Origin: Eledone cirrhosa
Lineage: Eukaryota
NCBI GenBank assembly: GCA_964016885.1
Contig: OZ024740.1
Coordinates: 252,464,001-252,528,000 of the forward strand
Length of the DNA stretch: 64,000 bases
Direction of reading: 5' to 3'
Shown here: piece by piece, positions 22,182 to 22,800 of the stretch
Position numbering within the stretch: the first letter of the stretch is position 1
Layout of the letters: each line of letters opens with the position of its first letter
Made by a program: the position numbers and the translations under genes
The notes under the pieces: model-generated
The model's database searches: none
What the model was told of the DNA's origin: nothing
Seen by the model: the letters and a program-made list of their open reading frames with translations, nothing else

Positions 22182-22794
22182 CCAATTTGCATATCGAGTG
22201 GGTTAATCGGCCGGGTGCACCGAAAACGATAAACGGAAAAAAATGAGACGAAATTTCATTTCCCACTCTTAGTACGGCTGTTACTTAAATATAAGTATGT
22301 ACATGTACATACATATATGTATACAGACGTACAGTAGTATGTATATATATATATATACATGCACACATATATATATATGTACGTATGGATTCACAGTGGG
22401 AAATGAAATTTTGTTTCATTTTTTTCCGTTTATCGTTTTCGGTGCACCCGGCCGATTAACCCACTCGATATGCAAATTGGCTACTCAGCCATTAATATGC
22501 ATAAGGAAAGTATATACTTTCAGACGTTCAACAATCTGGCAGGAAGGTATACGTTGCTGACGATAGCTAATAAGCTTGAAACTAGTACAGCGTTCCTTTG
22601 TAAGTGTTGAACAAACGAGCAACGATGGTTGCTAGACACTACGGCTTAATACGGGATGTTTGTTTACAAACACACCGAGCATTATAATAAATGTTCGGTG
22701 AATCCATACGTACATATATATATGTGTGCATGTATGTATATATATATACATACTACTGTACGTCTGTATACATATATGTATGTACGTGTACATA

Positions 22795-22800
<6 letters not shown>
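22182..22800. mobile_element. Small HHR-bearing non-coding element with an inverted, circularly permuted arm
   Basis: 22182-22267 is the reverse complement of 22395-22480; 22291-22394 is the reverse complement of 22698-22800. Confidence 0.78.
22551..22593 (+). ncRNA. Minimal type I hammerhead ribozyme motif
   Basis: ACGTTG-CTGACGA-T-AGCT(AATA)AGCT-T-GAAA-CTAG-TA-CAGCGT. Confidence 0.8.

Follow-up and report, generated by a model that had tools for sequence, protein, structure and literature searches.

A solo hammerhead repeat copy in Eledone cirrhosa with an insertion footprint like that of Penelope-like elements

We analysed a 64,000-nt stretch of the Eledone cirrhosa genome, here called the window, and found at 22182–22801 a locus that is best explained as a truncated solo copy of a 428-nt non-coding hammerhead repeat, likely inserted by the enzyme of a Hydra-type Penelope-like element (PLE) acting in trans. 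Judged by its sequence, the unit fits a non-LTR retrozyme: it carries a type I hammerhead motif, is short and low in GC, and is non-coding. The unit has a diverged, tandemly arrayed sister family in the same window.

The 428-nt unit and its hammerhead motif

The locus consists of two arms in opposite orientation. The original prediction had the plus-strand arm reading A-hammerhead-B and the minus-strand arm reading B-linker-A. This order is confirmed by the reverse complement of 22182–22394, which matches first 22698–22801 (B) and then 22395–22480 (A). The parts of the locus are as follows.

22157..22178, no strand: (TA)n run at the left outer end, the inferred target site
22179..22181, minus: spacer of 3 nt from (TA)n to the inverted arm, lacking in the direct arm; part of it may be templated (the two-family profile reaches 22179)
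22182..22267, minus: segment A' of the inverted arm, ending (3') at the left outer end, where reverse transcription is inferred to have started
22268..22288, minus: linker of 21 nt, in the inverted arm only; 22273–22279 predicted to pair with 22640–22646
22289..22394, minus: segment B' of the inverted arm, 5'-truncated at 22394, with a blunt junction
22395..22480, plus: segment A of the direct arm, with its 5' truncation point at 22395
22481..22697, plus: unique middle of the direct arm, containing the predicted extended stem I helix 22527–22612
22552..22592, plus: type I hammerhead motif from the motif scan, core 22557–22587, predicted cut after 22587
22698..22801, plus: segment B of the direct arm, a long hairpin rich in AT, ending (3') at the right outer end, where it overlaps (TA)n by 5 nt
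22797..22827, no strand: (TA)n run at the right outer end

Two boundaries moved slightly: the linker, predicted at 22268–22290, is unique only over 22268–22288, and B ends at 22801 rather than 22800. The A arms are identical at 84 of 86 nt, with 2 substitutions, and across the 104 nt of B there are 2 substitutions and one 2-nt gap. Overall the arms are about 98% identical, differing at 4 of 190 positions plus one indel. The linker sits between B and A of the inverted arm and is missing from the direct arm. The 407 nt of the direct arm and the 21 nt of the linker close into a unit of 428 nt, in good agreement with the predicted unit of about 430 nt. The GC content of the unit is 36.7%, and since the longest ATG frame on either strand of the 428-nt circle is only 53 aa, the unit is taken to be non-coding. 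The joint of the arms at 22394/22395 is blunt and lacks microhomology. Both outer ends of the locus carry (TA)n, with pure TA across 20 nt of each flank; the 3-nt spacer lies between the left end and its run, and the right end overlaps its run.

Scanning the window for the motif gave 14 type I hammerhead sites, compared with 0.02 per window in 50 composition-matched resampled windows. Ten are in a 469-bp tandem array, one is at 22557–22587, two are at 29.3 and 29.9 kb, and a weak one is at 30.5 kb. This last motif (30478–30526) has a 30-nt stem II region, is present in a single copy, and is likely due to chance. The hammerhead of the 428-nt unit has a 5-bp stem I (22552–22556/22588–22592), a GUA cleavage triplet, a 4-bp stem II with a U.U pair at its base, and a palindromic minimal stem III. 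As predicted, the stem III palindrome, ACTAGT, is common to the 428-nt unit and the 469-bp array, being present in the 10 array cores found; the cleavage triplet of the array is GUU. In the axolotl, a U.U at the base of stem II was described for HHR_Amex2 and a minimal palindromic stem III for HHR_Amex1 (PMC7229834), so that both weak features are found in one ribozyme at the 428-nt locus. For the ribozyme described with that palindromic helix III, efficient cleavage needs the dimer (PMC7229834, PMC4209133).

Rfam gave no matches at gathering level across the whole window. Ranked by E-value, 22100–24600 gave 58 weak matches, mostly microRNA models on AT hairpins, with hammerhead families absent. 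The 73-nt motif of the 428-nt locus folds no better than its shuffles (z 0.43; the array motif has z −3.15), and the 86-nt hammerhead region gives −20.2 against −15.8 ± 2.8 kcal/mol. The Rfam result and the weak fold argue against ribozyme activity of the 428-nt copy. Among cephalopods, 235 hammerhead loci have been listed for the giant squid, without analysis (PMC6962438).

The metazoan non-LTR retrozymes of Cervera and de la Peña (2020, PMC7229834) resemble the 428-nt unit in being short, low-GC and non-coding with a type I hammerhead, and in having a highly paired predicted circle; the predicted 428-nt circle is 70% paired. Those retrozymes are 170–400 nt long, so that 428 nt is slightly above their range, and the present locus differs from them in being a solo copy of less than unit length per arm with an inverted arm. 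A recent preprint (bioRxiv 10.64898/2026.07.22.740005) argues that animal non-LTR retrozymes derive from PLEs as non-autonomous elements, on the basis of co-distribution and pseudo-LTR phylogeny, mostly in vertebrates. Its retrozymes also co-occur with PLEs, span 51–972 bp, a range that includes 428, and are commonly found as solo monomer-type copies. The argument there is from pseudo-LTR phylogeny, whereas here there is no pseudo-LTR homology but a PLE-like footprint. A term search of the preprint's main text found no discussion of inverted arms or insertion sites.

Several other assignments were rejected. The preprint defines an active retrozyme locus by at least two consecutive hammerhead units, and the 428-nt locus has one. 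An autonomous PLE is set aside, the unit lacking an RT/GIY-YIG frame and having no frame above 53 aa. Plant LTR retrozymes have type III hammerheads, direct LTRs and a 4-bp target duplication, whereas the hammerhead here is type I, the arms are inverted and the flanks are (TA)n. A distant DNA search of 22395–22700 against plasmid and phage collections gave no match.

A tandem sister family with a common predicted fold

The original prediction treated the 428-nt unit as a second retrozyme-like family having the palindrome in common with the 469-bp array. That the unit is retrozyme-like is upheld, but it has more than the palindrome in common with the 469-bp unit: the homology extends over the whole length.

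15162..19680, plus: 469-bp tandem array, sister family at a separate locus; 8.9 copies at 15525–19682, with its own inverted arm at 15162–15530

In the global alignment of the two units, 293 of 482 columns are identical (61%), or 71% of the 415 ungapped columns, and the score is 179, compared with a maximum of −17 in 200 shuffles. The parts of the locus give the same result. The inverted arm, unjoined, is collinear with the array through B, linker and A with a score of 127, and the middle segment, 22481–22697, has a local score of 59; neither score was reached in 500 shuffles. The alignment is weak for the 45 nt around the B-linker-A junction (8 of 500 shuffles reach its score), and the linker together with A scores 58, the same as A alone (58). 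By these alignments, the 428-nt unit is a diverged sister of the 469-bp unit, homologous over its whole length.

The predicted folds agree as well. Compared as minimum-energy predictions for two families, the 428- and 469-nt units have 72 of 149 pairs in common, with 13 two-sided changes; 150 permutations of the substitutions gave means of 5.1 pairs and 0.3 two-sided changes, with maxima of 28 and 5. Without the low-complexity B hairpin, and with the cut site taken as the start of the RNA, there were still 44 pairs and 10 two-sided changes, numbers reached by none of 200 nulls. Within this fold, linker positions 22273–22279, present in the inverted arm only, are predicted to form a 7-bp helix with 22640–22646, present in the direct arm only. 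This is the sole 7-nt complement between the linker and the direct arm, and the 469-bp unit has a homologous helix with 2 two-sided changes in 7 pairs. Because the linker would thus pair with the direct arm in a helix common to both units, we assign the linker to the 428-nt unit and take B-linker-A as its natural order. The original prediction was made to depend on another locus with the B-linker-A junction or a tandem organisation, and the 469-bp tandem array has the B-linker-A order, so that the prediction is not refuted.

No second copy of the 428-nt family was found within the 64-kb window, the remaining profile matches being the 469-bp array or AT-biased matches to B. Nor does the window hold a tandem array of the 428-nt family itself: the unit closes from two arms, and it is the sister family that is tandem. 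The repeat-finder output for the window was dominated by TA runs. The inverted arm of the 469-bp array is 369 nt long and departs from the array unit at 1 of 368 nt, and the array has (TA)n at both ends. Both arms of the array end in the same hexamer. Their junction has a 5-nt microhomology, drawn from the two strands of a predicted hairpin, a feature absent from the 428-nt junction. Elsewhere in the window are a dispersed SINE-like repeat (1335–1566 and 41670–41900), in several copies of which 112 bp are internally duplicated in tandem, and, separate from it, a 70-bp minisatellite (53333–53844).

Insertion footprint and candidate enzyme

PLE insertions have an inverted, 5'-truncated copy adjoining the 5' end, and Hydra-clade PLEs in particular show (TA)n targeting, a CxCX5C linker, no clear target duplication and a type I hammerhead (Craig et al. 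2021, PMC8557442). At the 428-nt locus an inverted 5'-truncated copy adjoins the 5' end, and the (TA)n target is without a clear target-site duplication. The same inverted, 5'-truncated geometry is found at all four credible hammerhead loci in the window, a count from which the weak 30.5-kb site was excluded as likely chance.

About 2273..7975: Hydra-type PLE
15162..15530: inverted arm of the 469-bp array
22182..22801: the 428-nt locus
About 29152..29949: third hammerhead family

All eight outer ends of these loci abut (TA)n of at least 90% purity, with two of the eight placed at the run itself and six fixed independently by homology; such runs and their close vicinity make up 6.5% of the window. 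At the 428-nt locus the arm ends are offset by 107 nt, and for the three remaining loci the value is about 66, 70 and 171 nt; the tail in the literature has 30–40 bp. The inverted arm had been predicted as a sign of a circular or multimeric template. The arm is real, but its inversion is the ordinary footprint of PLE insertion (PMC8557442), as seen at four of four credible hammerhead loci. Our searches, which covered open-access main texts, turned up no description of this footprint for retrozyme copies.

The 428-nt locus thus resembles Hydra-clade PLEs (PMC8557442) in its inverted 5'-truncated copy, (TA)n target, lack of a clear duplication and type I hammerhead, and differs from them in lacking an RT/endonuclease frame and in having the 107-nt offset in place of the 30–40 bp tail. 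For the mechanism, the model is the PAc Poseidon element of Anolis (Frangieh et al. 2024, PMC11167929), with cutting of both strands, an internal start downstream of the hammerhead and use of uncleaved RNA; unlike the 428-nt copy, it is autonomous and belongs to another clade. The hammerhead pairs of Schistosoma PLEs (Cervera and de la Peña 2014, PMC4209133) are likewise truncated copies, 100–700 bp apart on opposite strands, with a short palindromic helix III that acts as a dimer, and circles were proposed as the template. The Schistosoma pairs are minimal hammerheads, whereas here the motif is of canonical type and is present in one arm only.

A PLE fragment lies next to the 428-nt locus.

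22915..24090, plus: 5'-truncated PLE open frame, with the C-terminal part of RT, a CxCX5C linker and a GIY-YIG-type endonuclease region

This frame of 391 aa has no internal stops and starts at the RT YxDD motif. It matched no Pfam family and was assigned as a PLE by its motifs and its 110 homologs (best E 3e-66), the named ones being from cnidarians and a sea cucumber. The CxCX5C linker and the CxxC / CxH around conserved E and N are present in both PLE frames (22915–24090 and 2273–7975), which by these motifs are of Hydra type. The 22915–24090 PLE is likely a separate insertion in the same microsatellite, because it has no detectable sequence in common with the unit and no hammerhead downstream. 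When the 428- and 469-nt units were compared with the 3' regions of the two PLEs and with the third hammerhead family, 20 of 20 comparisons were not above shuffles, and we therefore do not name a partner PLE for the 428-nt unit. The end of B and the PLE 3' end also match over 9 nt, which we discounted because such a match is probably due to chance in AT-rich DNA.

The Hydra-type PLE at 2273–7975 has a back-to-back inversion with arms about 95% identical over 2.6 kb. Near each 3' end it has a hammerhead-like motif (2357 minus, 7719 plus) with a palindromic stem III, and the same U4-to-C core change is found in both arms. The third hammerhead family (29152–29949) is flanked by (TA)n and has a long stem III; its inverted arms agree at 96% over a stretch of about 210 nt, and in sequence it is unrelated to the 428- and 469-nt units. 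Fragmented LINE-like frames lie at 20061–21575 (minus) and 24926–28230 (plus). The latter, which we take to be RTE-like, has Pfam matches for endonuclease and RT and a C-terminal C2H2-like repeat; the protein matches of the LINE frame are to mixed animals, with up to about 59% identity.

Insertion by a Hydra-type enzyme could have gone as follows. Transcription of a source array elsewhere would yield multimers; these may cleave themselves as dimeric hammerheads, and the products may then be ligated into circles. The PLE endonuclease would cut both strands of a (TA)n run, and each DNA end would prime reverse transcription internally, 214 and 321 nt downstream of the hammerhead cut. One cDNA, of 407 nt, would run through an intact hammerhead, the other would be 213 nt long, and 22394/22395 would be the point where the two truncated cDNAs were joined, back to back. 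In work with a purified PLE protein, both strands of AT-rich DNA were cut, reverse transcription began at an internal point of the RNA, and the main substrate was RNA that had not been processed (PMC11167929). The 428-nt copy has a single hammerhead, and neither of its arms reaches one unit in length, so that it is probably unable to make circles itself.

An origin of the locus at the DNA level is improbable. On that account, replication template switching in a resident tandem satellite would have made an inverted duplication, and the linker would later have been lost from the direct arm. The hairpin-rich unit, its position between unstable (TA)n runs and the close identity of the arms (about 98%) suit such an account, but at least two further deletions are needed to leave no complete unit, and four of four credible hammerhead loci, one of them a protein-coding PLE, have this geometry, which has been described as the footprint of PLEs (PMC8557442). 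We also think it quite unlikely that the same RNA was copied by another enzyme, an RTE-type or other LINE, through twin priming. Twin priming is known for L1 5' inversions, back-to-back joining of cDNAs is not unique to PLEs, and frames with endonuclease and RT domains are present in the window. A LINE is disfavoured by the lack of a poly(A) or fixed tail, with both ends starting internally in the unit, and by the (TA)n targeting and geometry, which match the Hydra-type PLE at 2273–7975.

The proximity of the 22915–24090 PLE, on the same strand with 113 nt from B to the frame, raises the question whether the 428-nt segment is the upstream pseudo-LTR of that PLE rather than a non-autonomous element; PLE pseudo-LTRs do carry type I hammerheads and inverted 5' copies (PMC8557442, PMC4209133). 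We consider this very unlikely. The unit closes on itself in 428 nt and leaves no space for a frame, and the PLE, truncated at the RT YxDD motif, is set off by a degenerate TA microsatellite. Moreover, the 3' region of the PLE has neither similarity to the unit nor a hammerhead, and the other PLE of the same type bears a different hammerhead. A fold-back chimera of the library or assembly is highly improbable. Assemblies are prone to error at inverted repeats beside (TA)n (PMC8557442), but the arms are set apart by their four differing positions in 190 and the indel, and their non-overlapping sequence fits the sister family in order and fold, where an artefact would copy, not complement.

The RNA template and retrozyme movement

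Returning to trans insertion by a Hydra-type PLE enzyme as the preferred explanation, we now consider the form of the template. The original prediction took B-linker-A as an end-to-start junction diagnostic of a circular or multimeric RNA. A template longer than one unit is borne out; a circle is not favoured by this junction, which lies inside the self-cleaved monomer, a molecule that starts and ends at the cut after 22587. It is the direct arm that spans the hammerhead cut site, and the template was therefore probably uncut or religated at the hammerhead. Given trans insertion, a ligated circle and an uncut multimer of at least 1.2 units are about equally likely, each coming close to an even bet, and the crossing of the cut site by the direct arm fits both equally well; a jump across a nicked monomer would be a distinctly minor possibility. 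The window's autonomous PLE likewise has arms that both span their hammerhead, and so cut-site crossing needs no circle.

The sister array favours the circle a little: had its template been linear, nine ribozymes would have had to stay uncut, although the array could also have arisen by tandem expansion at a later time. Four of its eight complete copies are identical to each other; among the copies there are 2 private substitutions, one 2-nt deletion and, in 3 copies, one change in the length of an A run, variants that do not discriminate between circle and multimer. Circular RNAs are abundant for the retrozymes of coral, mussel and axolotl (PMC7229834).

The ends of the two families are in partial agreement. 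The direct-arm end of the 428-nt unit maps to position 449 of the 469-bp unit, and the inverted arm of the 469-bp array ends at 451; for the other pair of ends, the positions do not match. One such coincidence has about a 1-in-10 chance, so the agreement is only a hint. The right outer end of the 428-nt locus falls in the loop of a predicted small hairpin. A bolder reading, which we hold doubtful but worth stating, is a superfamily of animal retrozymes whose whole-unit RNA fold is conserved and covaries, and whose ligated circles would be copied by a Hydra-clade PLE that primes twice at defined stem-loops from one (TA)n break. If this were true, each insertion would record start sites on the circle and would give direct genomic evidence of PLE-driven rolling-circle retrotransposition.

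PLEs have been named a strong candidate for moving animal retrozymes (PMC7229834), and the mechanism of retrozyme mobility is said to remain to be worked out (bioRxiv 10.64898/2026.07.22.740005). The class of element and the inversion were already known, and the added value of the present locus is a modest mechanistic lead. Movement of animal retrozymes has so far been argued from co-occurrence and terminal-repeat phylogeny, and the window adds evidence from the footprint. In this cephalopod, two sister retrozyme families that differ at about 30% of aligned sites nevertheless retain a single predicted RNA fold, and these families and a Hydra-type PLE bear one insertion footprint, which points to a candidate enzyme, candidate start sites and conserved helices.
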